Origin: Asterionella formosa | Taxonomy: Eukaryota | NCBI GenBank assembly: GCA_002256025.1 | Contig: NKIB01014885.1 | Span: forward strand, 1 to 39,721 | Direction: 5' to 3' | Length of the DNA: 39,721 nucleotides | Shown: positions 4,381 to 37,542 of the stretch, one piece after another | Layout: each line of letters opens with the position of its first letter | How positions within the stretch are numbered: the first letter of the stretch is position 1 | The notes under the pieces: generated by a model | Database searches by the model: none | What the model was told of the DNA's origin: nothing | The model's input: only the letters and a program-made list of their open reading frames with translations | Position numbers and translations under genes: made by a program

Positions 4381-4471
4381 GGTACCAGGTACCTGGTGTA
4401 GAGCACTAACTTTAATACCAGGTACCTGGTACTGCTGCGCTGGTACCAGGTAGAGACCATGGAGTACCAGG
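4381..4471. repeat. TA-CCWGG-TA motif array between the divergent genes at 3920(-) and 4991(+)
   Basis: ggtaccaggtacctgg...taccaggtacctggtac...tggtaccaggta...gtaccagg; further single motifs at about 4666, 4840, 4894 and 4932. Confidence 0.9.
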
Positions 4472-10148: not shown

Positions 10149-10176
10149 GGTACCTGGTACCAGGTACCAGGGTACC
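10149..10176. repeat. TA-CCWGG-TA array about 190 bp upstream of the gene at 10364
   Basis: ggtacctggtaccaggtaccagggtacc. Confidence 0.9.
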
Positions 10177-13452: not shown

Positions 13453-13594
13453 GGTTTACAAATTGAACTCGGTTGTGATTTGTGCTAGGATTTATGACAA
13501 TACATTAACACTTCAGCGTACCGGTAGTAATAATCAATGGAAATATGCAGATGGTCCTCGGTGAGCGAACTACGATGTGTCATACAATTGGCAG

Positions 13595-13631
13595 CTGGAA
13601 CCAGGGTACTAGTACCTGGTACACCCGGTAC
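13595..13631. repeat. TA-CCWGG-TA-type array about 145 bp upstream of the TPR gene
   Basis: ctggaaccagggtactagtacctggtacacccggtac; also gtaccggta at about 13519. Confidence 0.8.
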
Positions 13632-14197
13632 GAGGGTTCTGAGGAAATCGTTTTTGATGAAACAAGCTTGTCAGCGTTGCACGAACGCCATTATTATTGA
13701 GTCAGAGCCAGTTCTCCTACATATGTATTGCCTCCTTCTCGCTTTGTTTTATATAAAATCCGTGACTATTCATTCACCTGTTCCGAATTTGCCACGCACG
13801 AAATACGGCACTTCTCCATGTCCCGCCTGCTTGTCGTCGCAGAATCTGAGGCTGGTTTTCCCAGGCTTTTCAAGGCAACGACACATATGAAAAGAAGATT
13901 CGATGGGAAGAAAGGAGGAGCAGACCGCACCATCCAGTGCAAGGCGATCTATACGAACGTTATTTCCAAAACAAAGTCGATGACGAGCGGAGGCCACGTC
14001 GTGCTCATAATTGTATTTTACCAATAGTAAATGTAAGGTATTGATGTAAGCTTCAAGTCCAGTAAATCAAAGAACTCGTTGTTCTTTACAATTCTATGAA
14101 GAAGGCTGCATGTTCAATCAGCGACTCGCCTGATTCACATTTTAGTGAACACGTCGCCTTTGATGTCAAAGCTTCCTTCGACTCTTCCCATTCCAGC

Positions 14198-14272
14198 ACC
14201 TGGTACCTGGTACCTCGTACCAGTACTGCAACTTCGTCATCATAAAACGAATCTCTGTGTACCAGGTACCGG
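14198..14272. repeat. TA-CCWGG-TA array at the left edge of the transposon cluster
   Basis: acctggtacctggtacctcgtaccagtac ... gtaccaggtaccgg; a Stowaway-like left end (ta|ctccctctg) follows at 14300. Confidence 0.85.
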
Positions 14273-14414
14273 TTGAAACGGTATGTAGCGTATGCCTGTT
14301 ACTCCCTCTGGGGGTTGTTGAAAAGTGTTCGCATATTAAGGATTATGTGGCCATCATACTATGTTTCTACGTGAGGGTCCACATACTCGAAAATATCTGT
14401 TTGTTACTAGTTAA

Positions 14415-15915
14415 GGTTGCTGCCCCGGCTTAACCCTAGTTCGAAAAAAAACCCCGCTGGGGTTGTAAAAACGGCGTGGAACAGGGAGTTTCCTACTATG
14501 AATTCCCATGATTCGAGTGTCCATTTGAATATTTGAATTAAATAGGAATCGGGGCCAGGTTGATAGAGTTCCATTAAAATTAAAATAATGACATTTAAAC
14601 ATTTATACTTTTTGTACATTGCTGGATGTAGAAATAATTGTACTCAACACCAAAACATATATAAATTAGGAGTATGCCAACATATATGCCCATGGCTCTT
14701 GTTTATGCGCTAATATTGAATCTATGTTGCTGAATGTAGTTTCAATATCACTCCACGCACAAAGGTATATGCTGGAATGAAAATCAGTACCAGAGTCCCT
14801 GAGTACCAGTAACGGTATTTTGGTACTCGGAGTACCAGGTAGCACATAATCTTGGTTCATCATCATGGAAGACAGGATGAAACTACTGGGACTGATTTTA
14901 CCAACCAGTATTCAGTACAACTAATACGTGTGGTTCAAGTGTGGCTGGCGAGATTTTACAGAACCGGGATAGTTCAGCAAATCTAGAGTAGGTGAATAAA
15001 TTCAATTAAACCAATCAGAATATGTGTAGTGACGCGGGAGCTTACCCTGGAGTCTTTTCGGACTGAGAATTATTCAGCAAAACATTCCTATGCAAGACTC
15101 TAAGTATCATAAGAGAACGATTTTGCACGTAAAATTCTGATTCTAATATTTTGGCGACTGATGAAAGAGCCGATCAGGCCGACTTTTTGGAGGAGGATTG
15201 CTCTACATTTACGGGGTTTCATGAAGAATGAAATATATAGCCTTGTACCCTATAACTTCAGGAGTTAACTTCTGCAGAGAAGTGGCAGTTATCCCTCGTA
15301 CATTTTGTAAATAGCTTGATGGTCCCCTTTTTTGACTTTTATTTGGATAGTTACAATTCCAAGAGGGATAACTGCCACTTCTCACAAGAAATGATGTCCT
15401 TACCATTTCTGAATATAGAACATACCCCTAAGTCGAGGAATGACTGTATCTAAGCATAGGCAAAGTGGTCGTATTGGTGAAAGCTAATTTACCTATAACT
15501 ATTTTATTTAGTTGCATGCACTGTGTGGATTGAGGTGCATAATAAAATTATTTTGGAAAAAACAGACCTCGTGATGTGTAACTGCGGGGCCGCAACCTTA
15601 AATGCATTTAAACATATTCTCTGTTTCTGTAATTAAGGTTCCTGCATTTCAACCCGAAGGCAAAAATTAAAATATTGCTTAGGGTTGCCGAAATTCCCTG
15701 GAACTAAGAATTTATATGAGCTATTTTTGAATTACATGATTCCATTAGACATATTCAAATTAGTGGAATATACAGGTATAGATTGTAAATCTCTCTGTAT
15801 ATACTGGCATACGGAAAAGAATCCTGCAGATGTCCTAAGAACAAAAAATGTCACAGAAAAAATTATGGACAAGCATGGATACGCGATCCAAATGTGTAAC
15901 TGCAGGGCCGCAACC
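14415..15915. mobile_element. TTAA-flanked non-autonomous element(s), Kolobok-like; probably two units, 14415-15597 and 15637-15915
   Basis: Left ttaa|ggttgctgcccc (14411). Right ends ggggccgcaacc|ttaa (15597) and agggccgcaacc|ttaa (15915), both preceded by atgtgtaactgc. A weaker second left end ttaa|ggttcctgc lies at 15633. No coding capacity seen. Confidence 0.6.
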
Positions 15916-16000
15916 TTAACCTCTTTCTCATCTACACGTATTCTACTGCTGATGTGACCTAAGCAACTTGGTTTATCTCGAGTAAACTCGGATACCGGTA

Positions 16001-18102
16001 CCAGATAAAAATGGCTTGGAGCCACTCAACGATATAATATTTACAAGCAATGTATACATAGATTTTTCTAATTTTCCAGTTATGACAGTTTTTAGTATGA
16101 CAAAGTTGTACCTTATGTTGAACCAGATACAACATATCTCGTTGTCGATTAGGTTATTTGTTTCAGATAATCAGATAAATTTGTTCGAAAGTAGAGATCG
16201 GCCCAAAAGTGGCAAAACAAACTATACCATTGAGCCAGCATCTCCCGGAAATACATGTATACATTTTTGTACACAATTTGATATATATTTAGTTGCCTTT
16301 AACCGCCATGGACCATGTACTATACCAATAAATGAATCAATTAGTCACTCTAAGTTAATGAATGCAATATTTCTTTAAGGCAAAAAATGGAGCCATGTTT
16401 TCATGTCAGAGACCGTAATTCAAAGCAGAAAATGCTTCTGACACACCAAAAGTTAAATCAAATCGCAGGCATCTCATTAACAACGATTAAACTTACAGCA
16501 AAAAAAACAGCCTCAACTACCCAAAAAGTACGAGGTGATGCCTATACTTTGGATAAGACTGTAGTGTCACTTATTTAAAAATATATATATAGTAATGGAT
16601 TTGGAAACTTTGAATGGCAAATAACAATGGCAAACTACTATCAAACTACTGTGTGGTGCAATATCGAATATTGTTGCATCAAAGGCGGCTACACTGCCTT
16701 GGAAAACAAAACCTAGTCCAGGAACATTTATAGAAGCTTAATCAGGCGGGAAAGGCAACTAGCTAATTCACTTGTGCAATTACATGCTACTATGACAAGA
16801 AATGATTCACAGCCGTTGGCAGGACATATTTATTAATCTCTATTCTGACTATAAATTCAAGTTTAAAGATCCAACTCACGAAATACAAGAGACACTTACT
16901 CGCCCATAAGGAAAGGCGCCATGTTGCATTGGCTGTTGAACAGAAAGATATTGTTGACCTGATGTTGAAAGCATGGGATGAATCATTTGGCCATATCGCT
17001 AAAAACCAAAAAGCTGTTGCTGAAAGGCAGAGGTTGGGGTCCATTGAATTACAACTTGTTGCCCCATCCAGAAATTCAACTGACAAGTACCTCAAATCTT
17101 CAAACAGAATCAAACAATAATCAACCCGCCTCTTACCTTCCCCCTTCCGGTCTAAACTTGAGCCAAGGCATCACTGGAACCCTTGTTGATCAGGTCTTAC
17201 AGTATCGCAATCGTCAGGACGCTAGAATGGGAATAAATCTGAACAAACTTACCTGCCAACGAAAAAATCAGTGCCAAGAGCGATTGCAAGCAATAAACGA
17301 TACACAGCCGGTCTTTCTATCTCCGCAGGCAGTTACTTGTTAAGTTTTGAAGTGGTGGATGAACAACTAAAAAGGAAGAGGCACGCGGAAGAAGTGCAAA
17401 GTGAGCGAGAGAATAAGAAAACAGATGCAGAAATGGCGCTTGCATACAAGGCTAATGCAATCAGACCGCTTAACAAATAGCCAGCTGAGTGGATAGTAGC
17501 ACAAACGAAAACAATGGCAACTGGGTAGAAGCAAGCAGGAAACCTTCCATTTCCAACAACAAAACAACTACTACTTACCAGATTCCATGACACCATGCAT
17601 GATGTGTGGCGTCGCTGCAGTATCAGTTGCAACTGCTGTAATGGCTGATGCCACTTCCTCATCACCCTTTGGTTGGCTGCTCCTACTATAACAAAACAAG
17701 ATATGATGGGAGGACCACAAGTCTGAGGATGATGCAGCAACTACTGCGAAAAAATATGAGGAGACAGAACTGACAAGAAAACCATCAGTCTAAAAATGAT
17801 GCAACAACTGCGAAAAAACGTGCAAACGAGATAATACTTTCTAGCCGTCGCCTATGAAAATAACTACATGTAGGGTAAAATTTTAATCATTGGTTTTGAG
17901 CCACTTCGACCGGTTTTGTCACTTTAAAGAGGACAGATCTCAATTAATATATGTAAAAGTATAAAAATGATCTAATTCTCATGTAGCTCAATGAACTGAC
18001 TAATATCGTGCCAAAGGGCGAAAGAGGGAAATGATTTTTGCATGCTTCAAGAATGATTCGGAAAACGACATAAAACCATGGCTCAAAGTCATTTATAATT
18101 GG
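16001..18102 (+). mobile_element. Internally deleted pogo-like Tc1/mariner element with TIRs of about 25 bp and TA target duplication
   Basis: Left TA|ccagataaaaatggcttggagccac; right catggctcaaagtcatttataattgg|TA. Frameshifted transposase-like C-terminal relic at about 16860-17595: DIVDLMLKAWDESFGHIAKNQKAVAER / GWGPLNYNLLPHPEIQ / KQAGNLPFPTTKQLLLTRF. Confidence 0.78.
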
Positions 18103-18431
18103 TACCGGTATGTGCCAAATGCTGGTATGTAAGTTCCGTTCTTATCATTTTTTCATGTACTGCATCACGAAATTTGAAAATTTTTGAAAATGTATAAGCA
18201 ACGGCAACTCGATTTGAACTGAATTTCATTCATTCCAAAATTGACACTGTGTCACTAATTCGTGATCACATTGTATCATGGAGTAACATGGATCTTCAAC
18301 GGCAACTGGCTGGCGAAGATCAGGTGTATATCCTTCCAGAATATATTGATGGTCTTGATATCAAGCAGCAGCATAAAATATAATTATTGGTAAACTATAA
18401 ATTATTTTAAAAACACACCATTGTATGAATC

Positions 18432-19670
18432 ATGCCGTCACCATTTGATTTACTTGATGATAATGATGATGACAGCAGTGATCTTGAATTTTTCTTCCTC
18501 TGTCATTTAGCTAAGGAAGCGGAGGAAAAAGAACACTCATCCAAACGACAGAGGTGACAGTGTAAACGGAAGCATCACTCATCCATATGACGACGACAAA
18601 AAAGGCACAAGTGACACCATGAAAGAATCTCCTGGCAATCACATGTCAAGAAACTCAATCACGAGATTGCTTTCGAGAAGACATACAGAATGTCACACAG
18701 AGCATTCAAAAAACTCATCTCCATGCTGGAAATTCAGATTGCAGGGAATTATTTCAAATGCGGTACTTCTGAGCCCATTATTCCCAAAATTGTGGTAGCC
18801 ATTGGTTTGCAATGGTTGGCTGGTGGCAGTTACATCGACATTTGTCATGCTTACAGTTGTAGCATTGCTTCACTTTATCGATGTCATGATTTGTTCATTG
18901 ATGCTGTACTAAACTGTGAAGAACTCAAGATTATTTTCCCAGAAGAAAAAGAAGAATTTATCAAATTGGCTTCCAGCTCTGAATGCAAAAGCTCCGAGGG
19001 CATGATAAGAGGATGTGTTGGTGATATTGACGGCCGGTTTCATAGCCACACTCAACCGCCCAACTTTAGTTTAAAGTGGCAAAAACCCTGGTTCATTTTT
19101 TTTCGGTCACTACATGACTTATGGAATCAATGTTCAGGCTGTTTGTGATGCTGACTCAAGATTTTTTATTTTGGTGTGATTGCACCGGGAAAATACAGTG
19201 ACCAAGTAGCTTTTGAACGAACTTCCATTTTCAATCGAGTTGCAGCACTCAATAGAGGTTTTTATCTGGTCGGCGATGCAGCATACACATTGTCTGATGT
19301 AAAGCTTGTTCCCTTTGTTTTCTCACCACGTGATGATTTAACACAGGATACATTTAACTTTTTCCTTTCACAGCTGAGGATAAGAATAGAAATGGCATTT
19401 GGTCTTCTTCAGAAAAAATGGTGTGTTCCTAAAACAACCTATGGACAAGCTTGGAAAGATCTGCACGCAATCTTGATCCATGTGCTCGACTTCATAATTA
19501 TGTGATTAATAAGAAGATAATTTTGATAACAAGATTTTGGATGTTAATCAAATACTTGCAGAGATGATTCCAGTCAGTTTGTCACCCCTTGGTTGGGGCT
19601 ACTTACTGACTGTGGAACCATTGTGTATATTTCCTGGAAGCTCTGTGATGCGAGATGTGATTCTTACCAG
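18432..19670 (+). pseudogene. PIF/Harbinger (HARBI1-like, DDE_Tnp_4) transposase pseudogene
   Basis: Motifs across frames: FEKTYRMSHRAF, GLQWLAGGSYIDI, GCVGDIDG, YGINVQAVCDADSRF, YLVGDAAYTLS, FNFFLSQLRIRIEMAFGLL, CARLHNYVIN. Several stops and frameshifts. Confidence 0.85.
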
Positions 19671-19678
19671 ATCGGTTC

Positions 19679-20076
19679 ATGGGAGGACCACAAGTCTGAG
19701 GATGATGCAGCAACTACTGCAAAAAAATATGAGGAGGCAGAACTGACAAGAGCACCATCAGTCTAAAAATGGTGCAACAACTGCGAAAAAACATGCAAAC
19801 GATATAATATTTTGTAGCCGTCGCATATGAAAATAACTACATGTATCATAAAATTTTAATCATTGGCTTCGAGCCACTTCGACCGGTTTTGTCACTTTAA
19901 AATGGATAGATCTCAATTAATATATGTTTAAGTACAAAAATGATCTAATTCTCATGTAGCTTAATGAACTGACTAATATCGTGCCAAAGGGCGAAAGAGG
20001 GAATTGATTTTTGCATGCTTCAAGAATGATTCGGAAAACGATATAATAACGTGGCTCAAAGCCATTTATAACTGGT
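19679..20076 (+). repeat. Second copy of the 3'-terminal about 400 bp of the pogo-like element (direct repeat of 17706-18102), ending in TIR + TA
   Basis: Both copies start atgggaggaccacaagtctgaggatgatgcagcaactactgc and are collinear to ...ggctcaaag(t/c)catttataa(t/c)tgg|ta, with scattered substitutions. Confidence 0.92.
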
Positions 20077-20355
20077 ACTTTTCCCTTTGTTGGTGCCTGG
20101 GTAATCGCACATTCAGGGAACTCCATGCTGCATGCATGCTGTTCTTCAGTGTATAACGTTCTATTCCTATAACTAGACTATTCTACCGGAAAACTATAAT
20201 TGTTGAAAGCGTGTCTAAGGAAGTAATCTCTTAGAGAGGACGGTAGCTACACCTTCGAGGAGGACCAGCAAAAGCTAGGAACAACGTGCTTCGTTATTGT
20301 GTATATATTCACTTTCAGACGCTCAGTTTAAAAAATAGCTAATTTCACATTCAAA

Positions 20356-21453
20356 TCACATTGTCGGCTGCCTCATAGGTTCAGTCTCTCCGCAACTCGC
20401 CACAGTCACATCCAATTGATCGCTCTGCGTCGTTCCTTGAAGATGCAATTTAAGCCGGGATCGATGTGCCATAAAACTAATCACGGTATCCCATACGATG
20501 TCAGTCACATTCATGGCTAGAGTTCGAAATGTCAAGGGCAGGAAGCGAAAGCAGACAAATTCCAGTGGCATTAATATCAACGAAGTCGCCCAACTAGCGC
20601 GCAGGGTTGGCACATAGTCGGCCTGAATCTGAGGCCAAATATCCTTTTGAAGTCGATAGCCTTCCATCAACCCCGTCATAATAAACGCAGATCCCACAAA
20701 AATTGAATCCAATATAATTGAGTCTGCAACTACATGAGCCATGGCAGCAGCACCTCGATGCGCACCATTGGTTGGCACGAGTATCTCAAAGAAGTTATAT
20801 CCAAAATGCATCAATGGACCAGAAATAATCAACCCATCTGCCAAAATAGCTAGACCTCGTCGCAAGTCGTAGGTCCTATGAATTCTCAATACATCCTTCC
20901 ACGTAAATGACTGAGTCGTTGGAACTCGACTTCCCAGCTTGAATTCAAACCACTGTGCCAAGTAGTCTCCGCAAATGCCGAGCACACCTGACGTGATGGA
21001 TTTGGTAATCAAAGGAGCAGAGTCAAGACGCATCATATACCACGACATGGAACAACTTGAAACATGGCCTAGGATATGTAATGCATGGCCACCAACGGAT
21101 TTAAGCAATAAAAGTATAGTCAGGACTACAAACTGCCACGGAGAAAAAGTAGAACTACTTGATCTCGCCAATGCGGAGACGCTTGAAGCGACAGCAGGTT
21201 GCACCAGTCGAGAATCTACGAGAAAGTTTTTACCGAGAAGTATCCAAGGCATTCGGCTGTTGGGTTGCTTGCTTTGTATGTCGGCAGATTCACTCGGTAG
21301 ATTCATGGAACTACGCATATGTATTTTTGGACGTTGAGAACTTCTTATCGTTTGTGGAATAGTCAAGCCATTGGAAGCTGATAGCAATAAGCTAAAGATA
21401 ATCAGCAGAAAGTAAACACAGTTGCTCGTCTTGGAATGCATTGCAAGGTGCAT
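20356..21453 (-). CDS. Mpv17/PMP22 family membrane protein with N-terminal signal peptide and extension
   Basis: Motifs PLITKSITSGVLGICGDYLAQ, YDLRRGL, GPLMHFGYNFFE, PTLRASW, FRFLPLTFR...IVWDTVISF. ATG at 21453 or 21441 (the track start is non-ATG). Hydrophobic leader ends SASNG-LT. Confidence 0.88.
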   Translation of the reverse strand: MHLAMHSKTSNCVYFLLIIFSLLLSASNGLTIPQTIRSSQRPKIHMRSSMNLPSESADIQSKQPNSRMPWILLGKNFLVDSRLVQPAVASSVSALARSSSSTFSPWQFVVLTILLLLKSVGGHALHILGHVSSCSMSWYMMRLDSAPLITKSITSGVLGICGDYLAQWFEFKLGSRVPTTQSFTWKDVLRIHRTYDLRRGLAILADGLIISGPLMHFGYNFFEILVPTNGAHRGAAAMAHVVADSIILDSIFVGSAFIMTGLMEGYRLQKDIWPQIQADYVPTLRASWATSLILMPLEFVCFRFLPLTFRTLAMNVTDIVWDTVISFMAHRSRLKLHLQGTTQSDQLDVTVASCGETEPMRQPTM

Positions 21454-21625
21454 CAACAGCTGCTGGATCAACGCAATATCGGAGACAAAGAAAATTTACC
21501 CCGAGGGCTGATGTGCGTGTGTGCAAAAAGTGAGACTATACTTGTAGCTAGGTGTTTTGCTAGGTACATACCGGGAAACGGACCAGCTACCAGTATTTGT
21601 ATTACACAGGACGAACCAGAAGCGT

Positions 21626-21663
21626 TACTGGTAACAGGTACCTAGTACCCTGGTACCAGGTAC
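21626..21663. repeat. TA-CCWGG-TA array about 175 bp upstream of the Mpv17 gene
   Basis: tactggtaacaggtacctagtaccctggtaccaggtac. Confidence 0.85.
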
Positions 21664-21849
21664 TATGTTTGATGTTTGCATGTTATACGAGTATGTTGCA
21701 TAATCCTCAGAAGTCTCAGTTCTCTTTGGTGGGAGGCGTGGTGCTTGTGGCTGCTGATGGTGAAAAGACTATGCAGTCCGTCCATCGCCCAACCGCCCAA
21801 GGTAAAAACAATGCATCCCCTTGCCTGCTTCGTCCTCATTGTTTCAGTC

Positions 21850-22389
21850 AGGTTCTTCCATTGACAACGGAATATATGATTGTTTGTATTGATGCATTTA
21901 TCCATTATAGAGGTTCAAAGCGGTATATTGAAATGTCTTGATAGTGTAGAATTAATTTGTGTTCTATGGGGAAGACGGATTATAATGTTTCATAATGCAT
22001 ATTCGGGATCAATTTCCTGTACTACATACACTTGGTATGATTTCTACTATGGGGCTGAACAAATCAATGTGCGATCTAAATAAATATATGATAATAAGGT
22101 TTACCAAATTCATGTATGTGTACATATGCCTGTTTACTCCGAGGTCGTGGCAAACCGCTAATTTGTCCTAAAAAGGTCGATTGACACTTTCACGTATAAA
22201 TATTGATTACACAAATGAATGTTCAGTGTAGCTAGTTCATACTCAGAGAAGCGCTACATGCTCAGCTACAGATGGATCGTTACAGATTTGTAAACTATCA
22301 GAAATTCGTGACAAAACGTGTTATTCTACGTATAGTGGTTCAAAGCAGTAAAATAATTTCGATAGAGGTGCAAAGCAGTTTTTAGGTGG
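21850..22389 (+). mobile_element. Family A right-end fragment (homologous to 7470-7986); first unit of the TA-linked chain
   Basis: Shared blocks with 7.5-8.0 kb; subterminal ggttcaaagc(a/g)g repeats; ends caaagcagtttttaggtgg|TA. Confidence 0.7.
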
Positions 22390-22391
22390 TA

Positions 22392-23128
22392 CCAGTTAAA
22401 AACTGTAAGCCACCGCTAAATGGAGTAAATGCAAGGTTTGAGCTTAGTTTTCAAGAAACGTTAACTATTGTGACGAAGGAGTTGTTCAGATTTGCATAGC
22501 GAGTAAAAACATACGACTTCGTATTGTTGCTTTGTGTAAGTTGTTAAATACTTATTACGGCCCAAAGGTTGCTGTCGACGCGAAATTACGAAAGATGAAT
22601 ATTTTCACGTTTAATCTGCTCATGAGCTGGCATCGCCTTTTATATATGTATACCGGTATATGCACAAGAATAATAATGTTCTTCGGATAGAATTAATTTA
22701 GTATAATTAATTGGGGGTAGTACGAGATCATCATGCTTTCGAATACGCTATGCGTCAGAAGCATTTGGTGATGATGCAAGTGCAAAAAGCACATTGTATC
22801 GCGCCTAACAGGTAAACTGATACGAAAAGAATTTCTGTAGTATAAACGGAGTAAAAGTAATCACGGTTTGGGGGGGGGGGAATATACTCATGTATGGATA
22901 GAAAATATGCACTGTAGGCCACCGCTATGCAACAATCTTAGTGACTTTGAAAAAATTAGATCTTCATGGCTTTATAAACTGAATCGTAACTGATTACTTA
23001 TTCGTTGAGTAGAGTGCATCGTTTAATATACTCTTCTTACTTACATCAGATTTCGATTGATAAATTACTTAAATATTTTTTAGTCGGAACATGGAGTAAA
23101 ATAACGGTGGCTTACAGTTTTTAACTGA
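22392..23128. mobile_element. MITE family B, copy 1 (about 740 bp, TIR about 27 bp, TA-flanked)
   Basis: TA|ccagttaaaaactgtaagccaccgcta ... taacggtggcttacagtttttaactga|TA. Confidence 0.85.
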
Positions 23129-23130
23129 TA

Positions 23131-23885
23131 CCACTTTAAGACTGTAAGCCACCGCTACAACGACTTTTGAACTGTAAGCCACCGCTAAACGGAGTAAACG
23201 CACGATTTGAACTTAGTTTTTAAGAAACGTTAATTATCGTCATGAAGGAGTTGTTCAGATTTATATAGCGATAAAATACGTAGTAAGTACTTGTATTGTT
23301 GGATTGTGTAAGTTGTTAACTATTTATTACGGCCCAAAGGTTGCTGTTGACGCGAAATAGCGAAAAATTGAAAATTTCACGCTGACTCTATTGAGTTGAC
23401 ATCGTCTTTTCTACACGTGCACATGTACATGGACAAAAATATTCTTCCCATAGAATTAATTTAGTATTATTAAATGTGTGTACAATGTCATTGTGCTTTC
23501 GAATATATTGTGCATCAGAAGAATTCGGTGATGATGCAAGCGCAAAAAGCATACTGCATTGCGCCAAAAAGGTAAAGTAATACGAAAATAATTTCTTTAG
23601 TATGAACGGAGTAAAGATAATCACGGTTTGGGGGGGGGGGAACTCATGAGTGGATAGAAAAATATGCACTGCAAGTCACCGCTATGCAACAACTTTAATG
23701 ACTTTGAAAAAATTAGATCTTCATGGCTTTATAAACTGAATCGAAACTGATTACTTATTCGTAGAATTGAGTTCATCGTGTAACATACACTTAGTACTTG
23801 CATCAGGTCTCGATTGTAATCTTACTTGAATATTTTTTGGTCGGAAGATGGAGTAAAATAACGGTGGCTTACCGTTTTTAACTGG
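23131..23885. mobile_element. MITE family B, copy 2, head-to-tail with copy 1
   Basis: Left end has a doubled actgtaagccaccgcta; interior is collinear with copy 1 (ttacggcccaaaggttgctg, atcacggtttgggggggggggaa, tttgaaaaaattagatcttcatggctttataaactgaatcg); ends cggtggcttaccgtttttaactgg|TA. Confidence 0.85.
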
Positions 23886-23887
23886 TA

Positions 23888-25368
23888 CCACCTAAAAACT
23901 GAGAGTCATCCTTATTTTACCCTAAGTTACTATTCAAATTATTTTAGTCCGATTACATGGTAATATTGAAGCAAGTACGAAGGTTATTGTGGCTCGTCCT
24001 CCTGTTGGGTACTACTAGATCTAAATATAACTATGGTGAACTCAATATTTCTTGAGATAAAAAATTTTGTAATGTCATCGTTTTGCCTCATAAGGATGAG
24101 TCTCAGTATATTGGTTTTTAATAAATACATGAGGAAATTTAAATCTTCCATTTTTCCCCAATTACCCATTTTTGCCAGAAAAACTTTTTGATGCCACAAC
24201 ATTATTAGTCCGTTTCAGATTACTATCCTTTATTTATTGTCTCTTTCGACGTTTTCTTTCCATAATAATAGTCGGTTTCGAAGATACTCCACTATTAACA
24301 TTTGGTTTCGGGTCAAATGCAACTTAAGTTAATTACTTTAGTGACGGTTTCGGTAATATTTAATTACGTCTATCGCGTGACAGCCTAACACTTGTTGCTT
24401 GACAATCCTCATACATAAAATATGTAGACCATGCAATAACTGCTGGCGATGAAGCTGTGTACCAGGGTACCTTGTACTGGTACTAGTACCGGGTAATCGT
24501 CATGACAATGTTGCTGATCGACAAAGCCATGACAATGATGAATGACAATTTTGTTTAATTATTGAATTATGAATCAATGATAGTTTTTGAATGTTATCTC
24601 GAGTAGATTATGTTATATCGTAGAACAGCGCATCTGTTCGAAAGTGTCGCGTCTTGATGCGACAAAGAGGGATCGAGAAATCATCGACAGTGTCGAGCGC
24701 CATTGTGAGTTTTCCGATTTTCCATATTCGACTTTATCTAAACGAATATACAAGCTACAATGAAATTCGTTTCAAAATATACTAGCGAATAATCTATTCT
24801 ACTCAGTGGACTAATAATAACATAGCTTCATGCTAGAAAATCAACAATTTTCACTTGTTTTAATGGTTGTAATCATAGTGCCGGCAAAATATCTAATTAT
24901 ACACCGGTGAGATTCTGCCGTCAGTGCGTAGATGCCGGTAAACTGATCACTGCCTTTGATCAATGTGTGGTGAACAGGACGGAGCAACAGCACTCCATGT
25001 GACATTGATAATCAATTGAAGTCAATAAATATAGAAACAAAAGACACTAAATAATTAACAAAGAATCAATAAAAAATTTATTTAGCTGAAATGTGATCTA
25101 ATTGTCAAAAATGCCTTGCCAACTCAACAGGGTAATCTGATTTGATCCAAATTTTTGCGACAGCTACCTTTCGACCTATTTATCTCAAGAAAGGAAGCGA
25201 AAACTCAACTTACAAGTATGACCATTGCTCTTCCATACATTCCAATGAACAACTTTGTCTAAAACAGAATCAATGTATCTCCAATATTCGTCCCAAAACG
25301 TGTGATTACCCTGTTTAAGGATGACTCTCAGTAAAAAAAGAATAACGATGACTCTCAGTTTTACGTGG
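23888..25368. mobile_element. Non-autonomous element family C (about 1.48 kb, TA-flanked, TIR about 22 bp)
   Basis: TA|ccacctaaaaactgagagtcatc ... gatgactctcagttttacgtgg|TA. Subterminal copies gatgactctcagt (25320) and gatgagtctcagt (about 24096). Internal TACC array at 24459-24495. Followed directly by ccaggtaccaggta. Confidence 0.78.
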
Positions 25369-26132
25369 TACCAGGTACCAGGTAGTGTCAGAGCAGCCAT
25401 CATGTTAAAATTTTGATTGAATGATTTCATCAGAAGTTCCAATGATAATAAAACAGCTAAAAAGTTATTCCAATGGTTCACGGCAGTATATACGTTTTTC
25501 TAGATAAATGTATATACATTTTCGAGGATGTATTCCTAGGTCAGCATGTGTCAAAGCACTTTTCATGCATGTTATTGCACACCTTATGAAAAACTGGTAT
25601 TTAATCCCTACCTGGTGTTATACCAGTAACCATACTATATGATGCTGCATGCCTAAATAATTTGCCATATCCGTAGAGGTTAATACCAGGACAAGATATA
25701 TATTGTCACAAATGAGGGAGGGTAAGGTTCAAAAAAATTACGAAAATTTGACATTCATCATCATATATCATCATATGACGTGGAGACTTCTAAGCTTAAA
25801 CTAGTCCGTGTTCTCCATGGTGTTTTGGTAAATCGATCATTTCAGGCAATCTATTGAGATGAACAGCTTGCTCCAAATCTCGAACTACATAGCTGACTAG
25901 ACTACATACTCTCAAAATTTACATTTACATAAGTTTGATATCAAAATATGATATTCTGGGTTCAATGAGTCAGAGCAGTACAAGAATATTGTCAATGGGT
26001 CATGGCAGTTTGTTACAGGTATCAGGATCTCAGAATAGCATGGGACATCCTGGTGTGCAAATAGCATAGCAAGTAGAGGACTGTTGACAAGATCTTAATG
26101 AAAAATAAACTGCTTTGTTGTGGAACTGGGTA

Positions 26133-26310
26133 CTCCCTCTGTTCCGGTATAGTTGTACTAACACCCTCAGCGACTAACCCGGCTCGATCCACATCGTTCA
26201 AAGAAGCCCTCGCTCTGTAGAAGCAACATACATTTTCTACGCGAGAGAGGATGCAGGCTACGGATATCGGATTGATTTGTAGATTTAGGCGAGTATAACG
26301 CTAATTAGTG
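26133..26310. mobile_element. Truncated Stowaway-like MITE (left part of the 7044-7322 family)
   Basis: ta|ctccctctgttccggtatagttg...cgactaacc..gatccacatc..ttcaaagaagccctc..gatgcaggcta..tttaggcgagta, all shared with 7044-7220. Confidence 0.78.
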
Positions 26311-27179
26311 AAAAATGTGTACCTTTTTATTAGGGCTATTGAATTTACTTGAAATTCGTTAGCCAGCATAGTTGTTTGGCTCTACATGGATTGGAATACA
26401 ATGTATCTGGTCATAATGTTGTGCCAGGCAGTATCATTGGTTTTCTTCAAGTCAGCGTTGTTGTCAATGAAATGCCAGACAATGAAGAAGAAGCTATTTT
26501 GCGGTTGTTTTGATGGGGGATAGTGGACACGGCACAAGGGAGGATGGAAAGACTTGTTGTTGTGTTCGTCTGCAAATAAAAACCATCATATTCCTATGAT
26601 GCATCATAGGATCATGATCATCTGATCATAATTTTTCGTTGTATCATCTAATAATTTTGATAAATGCCCTCGTAATTTAAATAGTAACCCTTTTGACTAT
26701 GGAAATTTAATTATTATATGTATTGTTTCTTTTTGGTTCCTTTATTCAAATTTTTTGGTAGGATAAAGTACCAGTTAGAGTAATGTGGTTTGGCTCATCA
26801 TCCTCGCCAGTCCTCACTCTGATTCTTGCAACAACGACAAAGTAGCCATGTCGAGAGGAACAAGTGTTTGTGAAAAAATCTTCATTTGCCGCTCAAGTCA
26901 TAATTGTCTTCGATGAATCATCGTCTACAGTGCATAGTGTGTTCGTGTGCAATCCGTTAAGAGCTTGAAAAGAAATCCGATGAAAACGAAATGGCTCATC
27001 ACACAAGACAAATATTTCCGACCAGTCTGTCACCAGAGCATCAATCAGTGTTACAACCTCAATCATAGCTAAACGGCATCCATTATAGAACAGCACAATC
27101 TACTTCTCCATAACATCGTCTCTCTAACGAGAACATAATACATGTAGAATGGAAATGCAGCATAGCAGATGATATGCAC

Positions 27180-31810: not shown

Positions 31811-32389
31811 TTCGTCAGCCACTTCTTCGTTTTTGTCTGAGATATCTTCCATCCCAGTGGTTTTCAAACCACCGGGTCAGGATGTAAACAAGTTTTGTCT
31901 CAACATGGAGGAGGGTCTATAATTTAAGTTAATACATAGTTTTCTCCTCTATATCAACACTAACATTCCTTGCTTGGCGGTGTATCTATGTGGGTACCGG
32001 TACATCGCTAGTAAATAAATTTATTACGGTAACACATCTGCTCTTTTTCGCTATTGTTTGATGTCGCTGCATGTGTAGAAAGTGCTCTGTAGTATTTCCA
32101 CGTACTTTTAAGTACCCATGACGATCAATTTCAACGTGGGTACCGGTATCGAAGCCCATAACAGAACATCCTTTGTGCTGTTCGAAGATAAGTACAGCCA
32201 TGGCAGCTGATGGAGTGACCTTGTACGAAAACGAACGTCATAGACCGGTGTCGTTATTCAAATCGAAATACCGAATTCAATTGATGTTGTCGGCGCCAGG
32301 CTATTGTAGAGGCTGTCACGGTCAATGCTGAACTGACTACAGTTGCTTTCGATTATAATTCTTTTGGTCTTGATAGCGCCGAGGCCATC

Positions 32390-32860
32390 AACACAGGTCT
32401 TCAAGGTCGATACTGTTGTGACTACACTTGATCTCAATGGCAATTCAATTGGTGATGATGATGCAAAGGCCATTACCCCATCGAGGTCAATTTCAACACA
32501 GGCCTTCAAGGTCGATACTGTCATGACTATACTTGATCTCAATGCCAATGCAATAGGTGATGATGATGCTAAGGCCATTACGCACCCCATCGAGGTCAAT
32601 ATCAACACAGGCCTTCAAGGTCGATACTGTCATGACTACATGACTAGATCTCAATGCCAATTCAATTGGTGATGAGGATGCAAAGGCCATTGCCCCCTCA
32701 TGGTCAATACTGGATTGAATAACTTGAATTTACTTCTGAGGCAATTAAATTCACGTCAATGCCAATTCAATTGGTGTTGATGACGCCAATTGAATTGGAG
32801 ATGCTCTCAAGAAGGTCAATCCTGTCTTGACATCTTAACAATGCTTTCTCTCAATTGTAA
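32390..32860 (+). pseudogene. Degenerate RNI-like/NLRC3-type leucine-rich repeat array (3 near-identical units of about 105-109 bp plus decayed units)
   Basis: Units start at 32390, 32495 and 32604 (aacacagg.cttcaaggtcgatactgt) and encode KVDTVVTTLDLNGNSIGDDDAKAI. Frame is lost in unit 3; no start context. Confidence 0.75.
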
Positions 32861-34630
32861 TGCAACTGGTATTGATTAACTAATTGAACAGCTTACTATT
32901 AAGTAAGGACTATTAGATATAAATTTACCATCCTTTTCCATAAGAATCGAGCAAAAATGGTGGGCCACATGAATTTCTCGAATGTATATGGTCAATATGG
33001 CTGTCTATATTCATAAATATATGATTTAAACCATTTGAAATTTTGGTGATGACTTCCTTTTGTTAAGGTGCTAAATTAATTCAGCCACTGACATGTAGGT
33101 ACAAGAATTGACACAAAACCAATTGAGAAAATTCAACAGGTTGTGGAAGACTATGAACTCATAATGCATTGTATATATTTGAATTATGTATAATCAAAAC
33201 TGATGAAAGTATACACAGGATGTGCCAGATAATGAGCGTGTTTAAAACTATGCAAATGTTCAACTATTTATACATTCCAACTTACAAATCTTTATATATA
33301 TGTATACATGGCTGAAACATTTAAAATCATGTTTTTATGTTCCTTGTCATGCATACACTTTGCTCCTGAAAACCATTCTTAGCTAAATATAGTTCTAAAT
33401 TTCGATCAATTTCATCCTATTTTAGACAGTGATATCGATGAGAATTACGATCATGCTAAGATAGATGTATGACAAAAGTATACACATCATATGACCATGT
33501 TTGAGTAATTATATGATGAAATGGTATTATAACTATGATAGTCTCATCATACTTCAAGCTCGGTAAAATTTTACTGCATGATCATAATTATATGATACAT
33601 TGATCATATTTTTGATCGAAAAACTATCATATATTTGAAAATCCTGTGCCACTTAGCGTATGATACCGTTGATCATATTTTCATGATATTTTTTATTTAC
33701 AGACGGCCTGCTTCCATCGTCTGTTTTGATCGCTTCCATTGTTGTTTGTTGTTCCTCACTGTAGTTTAGATTCGAGTGTAAGTATCTACACAAGGGCATA
33801 GCTATGGGTGTATCAATGACTACTCTTTGAAGATGTGGTATTTGGCTGTTGTTGATCTTATTTATTGATTTGTATAGTCATTGACCATGCATGATATCAA
33901 TAGTGCCGCCAAGCAATGATGCTTTTCTTGTACTAACGCGCTTGGCTACCTTTCTACTACAAGTTCGTATCACAAGCTATGTATCAATTTTCAGCCAGAG
34001 GGAGTCGATAGTGCTGGAGCAGTCTGGTGAACACGCTCGCTCAGAATGGAATGATCAGGGTTGATTGGTTGTGGGGGGAGGAATGCCTGGTGCGGTGGAA
34101 AGACTGCTACTGGTGTCAGGCTACTACAGCGATGTGAATGGTTGCAGCAACCAGACCATCTACGCTACATAACGATATAGGTCTAAATGGGGTCAGCTTT
34201 TTTCTTCTTATTTTGGTCTTTGATTGAGTGGTGATGGAAAGTCAATGTTGCCTGTGTAAGTACTACAATGTCACAATGCATACGTCTCCATTGAAACTCC
34301 TATTTTTTACTTCATTTCTAACCCAAAACAATTTTTTTATTTCTCATTTGATGATGTTGCATGTTGCAATCATTCTCGTGTGTTTTACGCTTGTTGTACC
34401 CTTTCTATGTATTTTACTGTCATTCTGGCTGTCATGGTAAAATCGGCAATTTTGATGCCGAAAAATTCGATGTGCTCCATATTGCCCCTAAATAAAAATT
34501 ACTTAACAATTACTTAGAGCCTAAAAATTACTTGGAAGTACATACCCGAATGGCACGACGCTAGCTGGAACCGGGAGTTTTGCCTTCAGCGACGCAGATT
34601 TCCATTTTGCATTTATGTGCTGTACGGCTA

Positions 34631-34839
34631 GTACCCCTGGTACCAGGTATCAGAACCACGACCTGTGACGAGCTGCAGCATGTGTGGTACCTGGTACCAG
34701 GTACCAGGGGTGCCGTAACTATGTTTACGATGCATCATTCTCCGAGTAGCAGTAACTGGTACCAGCACCATGCATACGTAAATTTCGATACTGTACTGCT
34801 GGTCGTAGGATCTGACTACCGGTACATACCGATACCAGG
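34631..34839. repeat. TA-CCWGG-TA arrays 150-350 bp upstream of ERGIC3
   Basis: gtacccctggtaccaggta; ggtacctggtaccaggtaccagg; ctggtaccag; taccggtacataccgataccagg. Confidence 0.88.
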
Positions 34840-34986
34840 AGTTTGATTCATGCAGGATGATCAACCTGCATGGATGAGGGAAGTCATTTTTGCGTCGCCC
34901 ATCATCAATTTAGCTTCTTTCCTCCTTCTTCTTGAGCTATAACAACTTTGCGTACGACTCATTCTCTAATCAGAACCTTGTCCGAC

Positions 34987-36495
34987 ATGTCTGACAATGG
35001 AAGCAACTACGCTTCTTATCGAGCTCAATCAAATGCAAATTACTATCAGTCTTATTCACAAGCGGTGAATCCAATTCCTCCCGCCGATGAAGGCCTGCGA
35101 CGGCGGACAGCACCTGCGCCTCCCGGGAGAGCAGCGAAACATCCACCCGCCCCTTCGTCTGCATCAAAAGTCGTTAAGAATCTAGATTTTATGTTCCCCA
35201 AGGTAGAATCCGAGTTTACTGTCCGATCAGAGCGTGGCGGGATGGCCTCGCTGGTAGCCCTGTTGGTTATTGCTGTGCTTGCCCTTGCAGAGATTATGGC
35301 GTGGGTAGCCCAAAATTCAGCAACGACGGAGCACATCTCAGTCAACACAGCCTTGGGTAAACGCATGCGTGTCAATATTAACATCACCTTTCCTGCCCTG
35401 GCCTGTGAAGATTTGCATGTAGACGCGATGGATGTGGCTGGCGATTCTCAAATTGATGTCGAGGACACGTTGGTCAAGAGACAGCTTCGCCCGGATGGCA
35501 CCCTCTATAGCTTCAAAGAGGTTGAGGTGGAGATGAATGCTCATAGACAGGTGCAAGAAGAGAAGGAAGCCATTATCAAGAAAGAACTACCGGAAAAATA
35601 TTGTGGTCCTTGCTACGGGGGCCATGATGAGGAGGATCAATGTTGTCAAACCTGTGATGAGGTCATTGAAGCATACAAGAAGAAGAAATGGAGAACGGAT
35701 CTACTTCAGTACACCGCTGAACAATGCATTCGCGAAGGTCGTGACAAGAAGGAACCCAAGCGAATGACCAAGGGGCAGGGTTGTAATCTTAGTGGTTTCA
35801 TGACAGTCAATAGGGTGGCTGGGAACTTTCATATTGCCATGGGAGAAGGCATTGAGCGCGATGGGCGACACATTCATACGTTTGTACCAGAAGATGCACC
35901 TAATTTTAATGCCTCGCACATAATTCATCAGCTGAGTTTTGGGCCTGGTGAGGAGAACAAGGCCCCCATGAATGGCGTGACCAAGTTTGTCGGGAAACAG
36001 CATGGAACTACTGGATTATTTCAATATTTCATCAAGGTGGTGCCCACCACCTATATTGGAGATGACCTGATTCCATTGGACGCTAAGAAAGCCATGACCC
36101 TTCCTTCCTTGTACCCTGAAGTGGAGGAGAGTGAGAGAACGGGCGTGCTGGAAACGAACCGCTACTTCTTTACGGAGCGATTCCGTCCGCTAATGCGAGA
36201 GTATATTGACGACGAAGACATGGAGGAAGATGATCCCAGAAAAGCTGGCGTCCATGCAGGAGCTACTGGAGGCCATCATCATGTGGATCATCATAAGATT
36301 CAAAACGCCGTCCTGCCCGGAATATTCTTTATTTATGAGATATATCCGTTTGCTGTGGAGGTTACCAAAAACACCGTTCCGTTTACACATTTATTGATCC
36401 GGTTAATGGCTACCGTCGGTGGAGTGTTTACTGTTGCAAGTTGGGCTGACGCTGCACTCTCCGGTCAAAGCATTCGACGACGAGGTGCGTTGTAA
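34987..36495 (+). CDS. ERGIC3: ER-Golgi intermediate compartment protein 3 / Erv46-like COPII vesicle protein (about 502 aa)
   Basis: First ATG at 34987. Motifs LDFMFPKV, N-terminal TM, NITFPALACEDLHVDAMDVAG, YCGPCYG, CCQTCDEV, GCNLSGFMTVNRVAGNFH, FQYFIKVVPT, LPGIFFIYEIYP, HLLIRLMATVGGVFTV. Confidence 0.93.
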   Translation: MSDNGSNYASYRAQSNANYYQSYSQAVNPIPPADEGLRRRTAPAPPGRAAKHPPAPSSASKVVKNLDFMFPKVESEFTVRSERGGMASLVALLVIAVLALAEIMAWVAQNSATTEHISVNTALGKRMRVNINITFPALACEDLHVDAMDVAGDSQIDVEDTLVKRQLRPDGTLYSFKEVEVEMNAHRQVQEEKEAIIKKELPEKYCGPCYGGHDEEDQCCQTCDEVIEAYKKKKWRTDLLQYTAEQCIREGRDKKEPKRMTKGQGCNLSGFMTVNRVAGNFHIAMGEGIERDGRHIHTFVPEDAPNFNASHIIHQLSFGPGEENKAPMNGVTKFVGKQHGTTGLFQYFIKVVPTTYIGDDLIPLDAKKAMTLPSLYPEVEESERTGVLETNRYFFTERFRPLMREYIDDEDMEEDDPRKAGVHAGATGGHHHVDHHKIQNAVLPGIFFIYEIYPFAVEVTKNTVPFTHLLIRLMATVGGVFTVASWADAALSGQSIRRRGAL

Positions 36496-37492: not shown

Positions 37493-37542
37493 TACCTGGT
37501 ACCAGGAACCTTACAGCCTCTATTAGCTATACCTGGTACCAG
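37493..37542. repeat. TA-CCWGG-TA array running into the assembly gap
   Basis: tacctggtaccagg ... tacctggtaccag immediately before the Ns. Confidence 0.85.

Follow-up and report, generated by a model that had tools for sequence, protein, structure and literature searches.

A seven-base repeat centred on GGTACC recurs through a 39,721-nucleotide stretch of Asterionella formosa DNA, hereafter the window. The analysis suggests that such repeats precede most genes and are favoured landing sites for transposons that rebuild the motif at their ends. We give an even chance to the reading in which the arrays are promoter motif arrays serving as an insertion target. Tips that rebuild their target would explain the head-to-tail piling of elements observed here. 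Should the arrays prove to be a promoter element general to this diatom lineage, they would offer a concrete and testable handle on diatom transcription and be useful for promoter design. Full-text literature searches found no paper with the array motif and, among the matches listed, neither a diatom GTAC promoter motif nor work linking diatoms, MITEs and footprints.

The seven-base arrays and their position

A sequence-only reading of this DNA had treated 24459..25384 as one span of arrays and had listed their units. The units are all present, in this span or in other arrays of the window, but the span itself resolves into a pair of short arrays separated by about 870 bp, one inside an element called here X2 and the other right after the right end of X2. 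The first (24459..24495) is degenerate, with five units and no canonical CCWGG; it reads TA-CCAGGG, TA-CCTTG, TA-CTGG, TA-CTAG, TA-CCGGG, TA and is a period-13 row for Tandem Repeats Finder. The second (25367..25384) has two units and reads GG-TA-CCAGG-TA-CCAGG-TA. TA-CCTGG, TA-CCGG and TA-CCAG are found in other arrays. Tandem Repeats Finder gives period-7 arrays at 4416-4452, 10149-10176, 14198-14221, 21630-21663, 25367-25384 and 34686-34708, and nearly all the period-7 arrays of the window are built from one heptamer.

The variant units are closely related. CCAGG, CCTGG, CCGG, CCAG, CTGG, CCAGGG and CCCTGG can each be written as a prefix of CCAG followed by a suffix of CTGG, and all unit variants are a single-base insertion or deletion away from CCWGG. 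Most units are bounded by TA, but the outer TA is absent from the terminal CCWGG unit of three arrays (34700-34709, 14199-14203, and 37502-37507). With a spacing of 7 bp, adjacent 10-bp palindromes overlap by 3 bp. The array flanks have only loose matches in common, such as ACTATGTTT. The window contains no tRNA genes and no Rfam families.

TACCWGG/GGTACCW units are far more frequent in the window than expected by chance. Counts, all over the 39.7 kb, were compared with 200 dinucleotide-preserving shuffles: GGTACC is observed 31 times (3.75 in shuffles, maximum 12), TACCWGGTA 20 times (0.15, maximum 2), TACCGGTA 8 times (0.23), and CCWGGTACCWGG 11 times (0.02). TACCATGGTA is not observed in the window, nor is the full join CCATGG between TAs.

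The arrays are concentrated before genes. Upstream windows, taken as the 600 bp preceding the first ATGs of nine ORF-defined genes, cover 13.0% of the window and hold 7 of the 11 array loci (P = 1.3e-4), 20 of the 31 GGTACC, 14 of the 20 TACCWGGTA, and all 8 copies of the decamer CTGGTACCAG. Per base, the DNA ahead of genes holds several-fold more arrays than transposon-rich DNA does. The remaining 4 of the 11 loci, including both arrays of 24459-25384, lie outside the upstream windows, in or beside transposon-rich DNA.

At 4381..4460, arrays are found between divergent ORFs (3279-4004 on the minus strand and the DUF760 gene 4982-6256 on the plus strand). The ORF 10310-10867, with its first ATG at 10364, has the array GGTACCTGGTACCAGGTACCAGGGTACC (10149..10176) 188 bp ahead of that ATG. 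Two minus-strand genes are preceded by arrays: a TPR gene by a degenerate one (13606..13631), 154 bp upstream of the first ATG at 13452, and an Mpv17/PMP22-family gene by that at 21630..21663, 177 bp upstream of the first ATG at 21453. Two GGGTACCGGTA sites (31993..32150) have a minus-strand ORF with first ATG 31809 on one side and a plus-strand LRR gene on the other, and two arrays with an isolated CTGGTACCAG (34632..34765) are 230-355 bp upstream of the ERGIC/ERV first ATG (34987). Two CCTGGTACCAG sites (37494..37542), upstream of a minus-strand acyl-carrier-protein gene, abut an N gap (37543-38132). Finally, a pair of arrays bordering a repeat-rich stretch (14198..14276) falls beyond the upstream windows. 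The arrays at 10149 and 34686, in unlinked promoters of unrelated genes, have an identical 24-nt arrangement, GGTACCTGGTACCAGGTACCAGGG.

Inverted-repeat elements inserted at the same motif

The local elements with CCA...TGG ends between TAs, also noted in the sequence-only reading, are real. Element A (2,102 bp, 16001..18102), with ends CCAGATAAAAATGG.../...CATTTATAATTGG, sits in the middle of the palindrome ATACCGG-TA-CCGGTAT. Element B1 (737 bp, 22392..23128), with ends CCAGTTAAAAACTGTAAGCCACCG..., has a single TA in common with the element end on its left and another with B2 (755 bp, 23131..23885). B2 is 82% identical to B1 (82.4% in the alignment of 22401-23144 with 23170-23901) and adjoins both B1 and X2 via single TAs. 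X2 (1,481 bp, 23888..25368) has the left end CCACCTAAAAACTGAGAGTCATCC..., an inverted copy of it at the right, and TA outside both; extra copies of the motif GATGACTCTCAGT are found in X2 near 24091-24114 and 25326-25340. Taken as a separate 227-bp element, 23888-24114 would have TT, not TA, as its right flank. Two lone right ends of the CCA...TGG type are found at 20075 and 22389. That at 22389, ...CAGTTTTTAGGTGG, closes an older element (21833..22389, left limit approximate) related to 7475-7977 (72.7%); public contigs break at 21845, near this left limit. That at 20075 is the right end of a transposase-bearing element (19679..20075), which finishes ...TTTATAACTGG, then TA, and has 92.75% identity with the last 400 nt of element A. 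Thus A sits in the palindrome, B1, B2, and X2 abut, and an array follows X2, so that arrays, palindromic target at 16 kb, and element train do belong together, as had been proposed.

TA is found outside the eight listed element termini and the right end at 25368, and four free flanks read CCGG, CCGG, CCAGG, and CTTTTCC. The base outside TA is always G on the left and C on the right, so that duplications of TA, of GTA/TAC, and of GTAC all fit. With (G)TA(C) beside each terminus, a TA duplication combined with CCA...TGG ends looks here just like a GTAC duplication combined with CA...TG ends. Directly inside GTAC, elements A and B1 begin with CAG, and B2 and the 20075 end finish with CTG; X2 and the 22389 end are of the CAC...GTG type. 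Two other duplications were considered. A NuwaI-like CWG duplication is ruled out by CAG and CTG being inverted, not direct, at the two ends, and a 3-bp TWA duplication was not found, the flanks being GG-TA-CC or G-TA-C with no TTA/TAA repeat. By our reading, a unit stands directly at the element end at 5 of 9 free flanks (16001, 18102, 25368, 7986, and 9683). The 4 bases to either side of TA are common to the element tips and the promoter palindrome, CTGG-TA-CCAG.

The elements had been assumed to be of the Tc1/mariner type, a premise that the domain searches contradict. A single transposase can be linked to these ends, and its predicted domain, DDE_Tnp_4, makes it PIF/Harbinger-like. It is encoded by a broken plus-strand gene (18615..19746) with one in-frame stop and a frame change, located just before the right end that resembles element A, and DDE_Tnp_4 is matched in 19155-19505 (E = 2.6e-9; 37.3 bits vs. 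a cut-off of 24.8). Full-length relatives of this transposase (430-490 aa) carry PF13359 and PF01609, some with PF04827. No Tc1/mariner or pogo Pfam domain was found in the ORFs of A, B, and X or in relatives of the ORF of A, even at E<=5. A pogo-type DDE_1 lead for the ORFs of element A (Atlas feature search 0.85, below the bar) gained no support from a profile search. The ORFs of A at 16806-17480 belong to an unnamed family, with 33 related proteins at E<=0.001; no Pfam family was found in the ORFs of A or in their relatives at E<=0.01 or at E<=5.

Several features are those of PIF/Harbinger (PHIS) transposons and their Tourist-like miniatures: DDE_Tnp_4, terminal inverted and subterminal repeats, and high-copy short non-coding derivatives. 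The target is also short and palindromic, with conserved bases beside the duplication, as in the ISL2EU and NuwaII groups. According to the available part of PMC4482050, PHIS groups differ in their duplications, with A|AT|T for ISL2EU and C|TNA|G for NuwaII. However, the flanks here are (G)TA(C), and not TWA, AT, ANT, CWG, or TNA, and no PHIS group with (G)TA(C) flanks is described in the portion of PMC4482050 at hand. In the candidate second ORF (16806-17480), Pfam recognises no Myb/SANT or MADF domain. The elements appear to form a PIF/Harbinger-like group with the unlisted target G|TA|C.

Unit order and comparison with other genomes

The sequence-only reading had proposed to ask whether CCAGG and CCTGG follow each other at random or in runs. 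The order of A and T at the W position is not in runs: adjacent W pairs in the window arrays are the same in 4 cases and different in 7 (n = 11), which fits a random order (p = 0.55). In bacterial arrays of the identical heptamer, by contrast, 207 pairs are the same and 22 different (80 loci; Fisher vs. window, p = 4.4e-5). Hence, W order in the window arrays is not in slippage-like runs, and the homogeneous runs of one unit that a slippage microsatellite requires are absent. The decamers nevertheless depart from random W, with CTGGTACCAG, CAGGTACCTG, and non-palindromic forms in the ratio 8:2:4 vs. an expected 1:1:2 (binomial p = 0.010, n = 14). None of the 8 CTGGTACCAG copies is an element junction.

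The bacterial arrays were used as a slippage reference only. (GGTACCW)3GG is found at 110 prokaryotic loci and in no viral contigs, and the control heptamer GGATCCW at 79 loci; bacterial heptamer arrays are therefore generic and silent on arrays without elements. Their unit, (GGTACCW)n, is identical to that of the diatom, but almost all of them are runs of one form, with 207 identical pairs among 229 adjacent ones, whereas the diatom arrays are mixed.

Data on other populations come from short Logan contigs that break at arrays and repeats. A contig of this kind runs across each of three arrays. In run X6, contigs cross 21630-21663 and 13606-13631 with 0 gaps and no length change at 21630-21663; in run X5, a contig crosses 25367-25384 with 2 gaps, whose placement within the contig is not fixed. 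Clear empty, filled, or footprint alleles were not found in the Logan contigs, which, given the breaks at arrays and repeats, is not evidence of absence. One run X6 contig continues for 180 nt past 21845 with sequence unlike the window, and in a contig that comes from a different locus, a B-type right end is connected to an array. Contig joints such as 10176 to 21645 and 22765 to 23524 were rejected as alleles, repeat similarity explaining them.

A metagenome scan with the ERGIC protein gave 59 loci, the best with 62-64% identity; relatives of 80-82% exist outside this set. In another pennate diatom (L002/L005, ERGIC protein 62% identical), GGTACCTGGTACCAGTACCAGGTAC precedes a PPPDE-peptidase ORF by about 315-340 bp. 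TGGTACCA is present in 3 copies each in L002 (6.3 kb) and L006 (7.2 kb). These two loci also have GTAC/CTAG arrays, 58-140 bp before the ERGIC start, and no such arrays were seen in L007 or more distant loci, few taxa being compared in both cases. The cross-species evidence thus comes from small counts in two other taxa. In the intergenic DNA of other diatom loci, short tandem repeats with periods of 6-9 are generally common.

Possible origins: promoter motif, transposon scars or slippage

If the arrays are a promoter motif used as an insertion target, they would be overlapping tandem copies of a GTAC-centred palindrome whose best form is CTGGTACCAG, and in this pennate diatom the palindrome would mark a zone 150-530 bp ahead of start codons. 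Its most likely role would be that of a putative binding site for a dimeric DNA-binding factor. Enrichment, array positions, element anatomy, and junction sequences are directly visible in the data, and from them we infer that a protein binds there and that the motif preceded the elements rather than deriving from them. Inverted-repeat elements would then integrate at the central TA (or GTAC) of the motif. Since element tips read CCAG...CTGG, each insertion would rebuild the motif at both junctions and create new targets, which would account for the head-to-tail train at 21.8-25.4 kb and the insertion in the 16-kb palindrome. The array at 25367-25384 would be the part of the target array that remains on the right side of X2, and that at 24459-24495 an older, decayed array inside X2.

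The concentration of array loci and of every CTGGTACCAG copy in the small upstream fraction of the window argues for this reading, as do the excess of CTGGTACCAG away from element junctions and the common 24-nt arrangement before unrelated genes. The three end units without outer TA point the same way, being unpredicted by stacked TA-bounded footprints. The array type before the PPPDE-peptidase ORF of the other pennate diatom and the gap-free contigs of another population over 21630-21663 and 13606-13631 are also in its favour, together with the TA-flanked termini and their free flanks and with the DDE_Tnp_4 transposase. The arrays resemble promoter tandem repeats and clustered cis-elements in having a short repeated motif with a palindromic core, found in an upstream band common to unrelated genes; they differ in the 7-bp overlap of sites, which is unusual, and in being known here from sequence alone. 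Other observations weigh against the promoter-motif reading. The 3-bp overlap of 10-bp palindromes is odd for selected multiple occupancy and more like a mutational product, and four array loci are in or near transposon-rich DNA. Units at five of the nine free element flanks would be yielded by footprints too, and the variants made of a CCAG prefix and a CTGG suffix are as imprecise tip joining gives. Furthermore, the W-order bias has n = 14, the cross-species support comes from two taxa, and tandem repeats of similar period are common in diatom loci.

It is possible that the arrays are scars of departing transposons, but we regard stacked excision footprints as an unlikely origin. Elements that duplicate GTAC and end in CAG...CTG would leave GTAC-C(A/T)G-GTAC on excision, 3-nt overhangs pairing C:G, A:A, G:C as in Sleeping Beauty. 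Each excision cycle would add 7 bp and one new target, so that arrays would record past visits. The period of 7 is the sum of a 4-bp flank and 3 terminal bases (CAG in A and B1, CTG in B2 and at 20075). Reparsed as GTAC+CWG, the unit also has the canonical Sleeping Beauty form, in which 'cag' or 'ctg' stands between TA copies, as given in the accessible text of PMC5224488; like that footprint, TA-C(A/T)G-TA, it combines a flank copy with local terminal bases and a central A/T. The W order, without runs and compatible with random, agrees with footprints, as do unit-length variants that match tip prefixes and suffixes, units adjoining element ends (25368, 16001/18102, 7986, 9683), the contig in which a B-type right end meets an array, and the fact that 24459-24495, which is the least regular of the arrays, is found in transposon DNA rather than at a promoter.

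The interpretation offered by the sequence-only reading is supported in part: arrays, palindromic target, and element train belong together, units fit the tips, and W order is not in runs, but the upstream clustering, the CTGGTACCAG bias, and the three ends without TA speak against footprints. Neither the 8:2:4 palindrome bias nor the identical 24-nt arrangement at two promoters is predicted by footprints, arrays are denser ahead of genes than in transposon-rich DNA, and elements of the CAC...GTG type (X2 and the 22389 end) should yield units that were not observed. The element ORFs gave no Tc1/mariner or pogo transposase, and no excision allele was seen in the short Logan contigs. Finally, the linked transposase is of the PIF/Harbinger type, which, according to the available part of PMC4561436, generally excises precisely, via cleavage staggered in the duplication. 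Precise excision would leave no arrays.

Seen as a tally, the arrays would count visits by GTAC-duplicating, CAG...CTG-ended Harbinger-like elements, some scars having since become the CTGGTACCAG promoter element. Promoters, as preferred landing sites, would therefore accumulate seven-base units, each renewing the target. We doubt this scenario; if true, promoter sequence in this lineage would be partly written by transposon traffic, and array length would record that traffic in readable form, a novelty. To our knowledge, and with no matches in the literature searched, Tc1/mariner footprints have not been described as stacking into arrays in front of most genes.

Plain heptamer microsatellites are a quite improbable explanation. 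They would arise without function by slippage or unequal exchange in GTAC-rich intergenic DNA, strand switching in the palindromic repeat would mix A and T, and elements would insert merely at plentiful TA/GTAC sites. Arrays of the identical unit do arise without such elements in prokaryotes, as do those of the control heptamer; period 6-9 repeats are common in intergenic DNA of other diatom loci, and the unit variants are all single-base changes in length from CCWGG. However, the W order is sharply unlike that of bacterial slippage arrays, one heptamer lies behind nearly all period-7 arrays of the window, and the upstream concentration and palindrome bias need more than slippage.

In a mixed origin, element ends or footprints would first have seeded the units, which would then have been retained as regulatory sites, and a host factor descended from the DNA-binding protein of the elements might read them. 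Such an origin is very improbable, being conjecture with no Pfam family in the ORFs of element A or their relatives and no host copy of the protein identified, although tips and promoter palindrome match over CTGG-TA-CCAG and the ORFs of A, with their 33 relatives, could encode a candidate accessory DNA-binding protein.

Arrays upstream of genes

The window is nuclear DNA from a eukaryote poor in introns, and the public runs containing it are labelled as algae, freshwater or lake-water metagenomes. By Tandem Repeats Finder, arrays of period 7 stand in six places and the row at 24459-24495 has period 13; degenerate arrays at 13606-13631 and 14823-14835 emerged from a less strict search for GTAC clusters. 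The sequence-only reading had described TA-CCWGG-type units at 24459..25384. These units are present, not as a single array but as two short ones about 870 bp apart. The first, 24459-24495, is degenerate (TA-CCAGGG, TA-CCTTG, TA-CTGG, TA-CTAG, TA-CCGGG, TA) and lies within the inverted-repeat element X2. The second, 25367-25384, has two units (GG-TA-CCAGG-TA-CCAGG-TA) and starts with the last two bases of X2.

The motif is strongly enriched relative to 200 dinucleotide-preserving shuffles of the window, every statistic covering these 39.7 kb alone: GGTACC (31 observed vs. 3.75 shuffled, maximum 12), TACCWGGTA (20 vs. 0.15), TACCGGTA (8 vs. 0.23), and CCWGGTACCWGG (11 vs. 0.02). There are 0 occurrences of TACCATGGTA in the window. 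The most frequent 6-bp palindrome is ATGCAT, with 42 copies, whereas 100 shuffles give 22.2 +/- 4.9 and never as many as 42; copies at 10215, 34730, and 34770 lie shortly 3' of arrays.

As a group, the arrays look like an upstream feature of genes. Taken 5' of the first ATG for each of nine genes defined by ORFs, windows of 600 bp cover 13.0% of the non-N sequence (5,097 of 39,131 bases; a 590-N gap occupies 37543-38132). They contain 7 of the 11 array loci (P=1.3e-4), 20 of 31 GGTACC, 14 of 20 TACCWGGTA, and all eight CTGGTACCAG, none of which is an element junction. Distances from array to first ATG are 154 bp for the TPR gene, 177 bp for the Mpv17-family gene, 184 bp for the ORF with its ATG at 31809, 188 bp for ORF 10310-10867, 230-355 bp for the ERGIC gene, about 380 bp for the acyl-carrier-protein gene (ATG at 37115), and 460-530 bp for the divergent pair at 4.4 kb. 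The remaining loci (14.2 kb, 14.8 kb, 24459-24495, and 25367-25384) are all in or adjoining transposon-rich DNA. Another type of repeat occurs in the plus-strand LRR gene, where a 105-bp unit repeated in tandem (3 copies at 32303-32884 with 86% matches) codes for leucine-rich repeats (LRR_6).

The best named relatives of the ERGIC/ERV-type protein (34936-36495) are from pennate diatoms: a Synedra transcript (64% identity), Fragilaria crotonensis (63%), and Seminavis, Pseudo-nitzschia, and Nitzschia (60-63%). A metagenome scan yielded 59 loci with best protein identities of 62-64%; relatives of the protein at 80-82% are not among these loci. In L002/L005, loci from another pennate diatom, GGTACCTGGTACCAGTACCAGGTAC stands about 315-340 bp before a PPPDE-peptidase ORF, and a CTAG/GTAC array precedes the ERGIC start by about 100-140 bp; in a further diatom locus, L006, a TACTAG/GTAC array is found 58-81 bp before the ERGIC start of that locus. 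L002 and L006 each have three copies of TGGTACCA, where about 0.1 per locus would be expected from base composition. The motif thus also exists outside the Asterionella formosa genome; with so few loci, the arrays cannot be called conserved sites. No similar arrays were found in L007 or in more distant loci, and all compared diatom loci have many short repeats with periods from 6 to 9. At 2347-2371, L007 has a heptamer array without TA, (ACAGGTG)3.6, which precedes its ERGIC start by about 330 bp.

Elements and their targets

A search for inverted repeats, BLAST of the window against itself, and a scan for tip patterns define element A (16001-18102), B1 (22392-23128) and B2 (23131-23885), with 82% identity between the two, X2 (23888-25368), an older element whose end is at 22389, and the right end of a further element at 20075. 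All tips read CCA-NN-TAAAAA-YTG and are flanked by TA. The proposed element train and palindromic target at 16 kb are both real: single shared TAs join the older element, B1, B2, and X2, and A is inserted at the centre of ATACCGG-TA-CCGGTAT. In every case, the base beyond the flanking TA is G on the left and C on the right. Hence, the duplication may be TA, with the elements ending CCA...TGG, or GTAC, with the elements ending CA...TG, and both imply an identical pre-insertion sequence. A second TA-flanked family with Stowaway-like ends (TA-CTCCCTCTG / CAGAGGGAG-TA) is seen at 7324-7332, 9675-9683, and 14302-14310; its tips would not yield CCWGG. After the end at 9683 comes TA-CCTGG-TA.

Contigs of two public runs, X1 and X6, both break at the train's left edge, 21845, and that of X6 extends for 180 nt dissimilar to the window, which may reflect a structural variant at the train. 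Contigs of four runs start or end at 14455, 15490, and 15633. In X1, summed contig depth at 14304-16295, 18288-19615, 22272-23600, and 26256-26900 is about 200 to 2,000x that of unique stretches; the genome is thus rich in short high-copy repeats.

Transposase of the elements

Over its final 400 nt, element A is 92.75% identical to the stretch 19679-20078. Immediately upstream of this stretch is a disrupted gene (18615-19746), in which a DDE_Tnp_4 domain is matched (E=2.6e-9, 37.3 bits, cut-off 24.8). Among 353 longer candidate relatives, 202 match at E<=0.001; the best, full-length and representing 165 member sequences, is 86% identical over 438 aa. The relatives carry PF13359 and PF01609, and some PF04827. 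The transposase linked to the element ends is of the PIF/Harbinger (PHIS) kind rather than Tc1/mariner. Neither the element ORFs nor the relatives of element A's ORF yielded a Tc1/mariner or pogo domain; an Atlas lead to DDE_1 in the ORFs of A (at 0.85) was unconfirmed by domain search. Elements of the PIF/Harbinger type are reported in PMC4561436 to excise precisely as a rule, cleavage being staggered inside the duplication. Thus, the Tc1/mariner excision behavior from which the sequence-only reading started does not extend to the local elements by family membership.

In passages of PMC4482050, individual PHIS groups duplicate TWA, AT (target A|AT|T), ANT, CWG, or C|TNA|G, or make no duplication. 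These passages name no group with the target G|TA|C, though the supplementary TSD tables of that paper might list a TA/GTAC group. The (G)TA(C)-flanked, transposase-bearing element (18615-20075 with 16001-18102) may therefore represent an undescribed PHIS group in diatoms. The overlapping ORFs 16806-17480 of element A belong to a protein family without a name (33 representatives at E<=0.001, some of 300-900 aa, 0 of 33 with a Pfam domain), which may be an accessory protein of the element.

Origin of the arrays

Arrays, palindromic target, and train are indeed linked, as had been proposed, and the simplest meaning of the link is target choice. On this reading, the elements insert at the TA/GTAC of a motif of the GGTACC type, their tips restore this motif, and the trains are thereby explained. 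That the arrays are promoter motifs serving as insertion targets has about an even chance of being right. One passage of PMC12744764 contains a cloning primer only.

It is unlikely that the arrays are instead stacked excision footprints, even if several features fit. All length variants of the unit consist of a CCAG prefix plus a CTGG suffix, a unit stands directly at the element end on five of nine free flanks (by our own reading of the junctions), and one contig, which comes from a different locus, joins a B-type end to an array. With a spacing of 7 bp, the 10-bp palindromes overlap, and this resembles a mutational product more than an array selected for multiple binding. The unit can also be parsed as GTAC+CWG, a 4-bp flank copy plus the terminal CAG/CTG of A- and B-type elements. 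This is exactly the form of the canonical Sleeping Beauty scar, given in a figure legend of PMC5224488 as "cag" or "ctg" between TA copies, and needs only the usual C:G, A:A, G:C pairing, not the one-base A:A overlap first put forward.

The order of CCAGG and CCTGG units, a check that the sequence-only reading had suggested, speaks on both sides. The 11 adjacent pairs (TA 5, AA 3, AT 2, TT 1) comprise four alike and seven different, against 207 and 22 for arrays of the same heptamer in 80 prokaryotic loci with flanking DNA, used as a slippage reference (Fisher p=4.4e-5). The diatom arrays are thus not simple slippage runs, as the sequence-only reading predicted for footprints; yet their order is not neutral, CTGGTACCAG, CAGGTACCTG, and non-palindromic decamers standing at 8:2:4 vs. 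1:1:2 expected (p=0.010), an excess that is suggestive but, at n=14, not decisive. Further points weigh against footprints alone: arrays 10149 and 34686 have 24 identical nt in common, three arrays have a CCWGG end unit without outer TA, and contigs from other populations cross 21630-21663 and 13606-13631 without gaps. Another crosses 25367-25384 with two gaps somewhere along its length.

It is more doubtful still that the arrays are microsatellites without function, and a mixed origin appears the least probable. Prokaryotic arrays are generic microsatellites, since (GGTACCW)3GG is found in 110 loci and the control heptamer in 79. Such seven-base tandem repeats are common in prokaryotes (the control being GGATCCW x3), and are often bordered by runs of related heptamers; a genome can have several, as some assemblies of Gemmatimonadaceae and Acidimicrobiia do.
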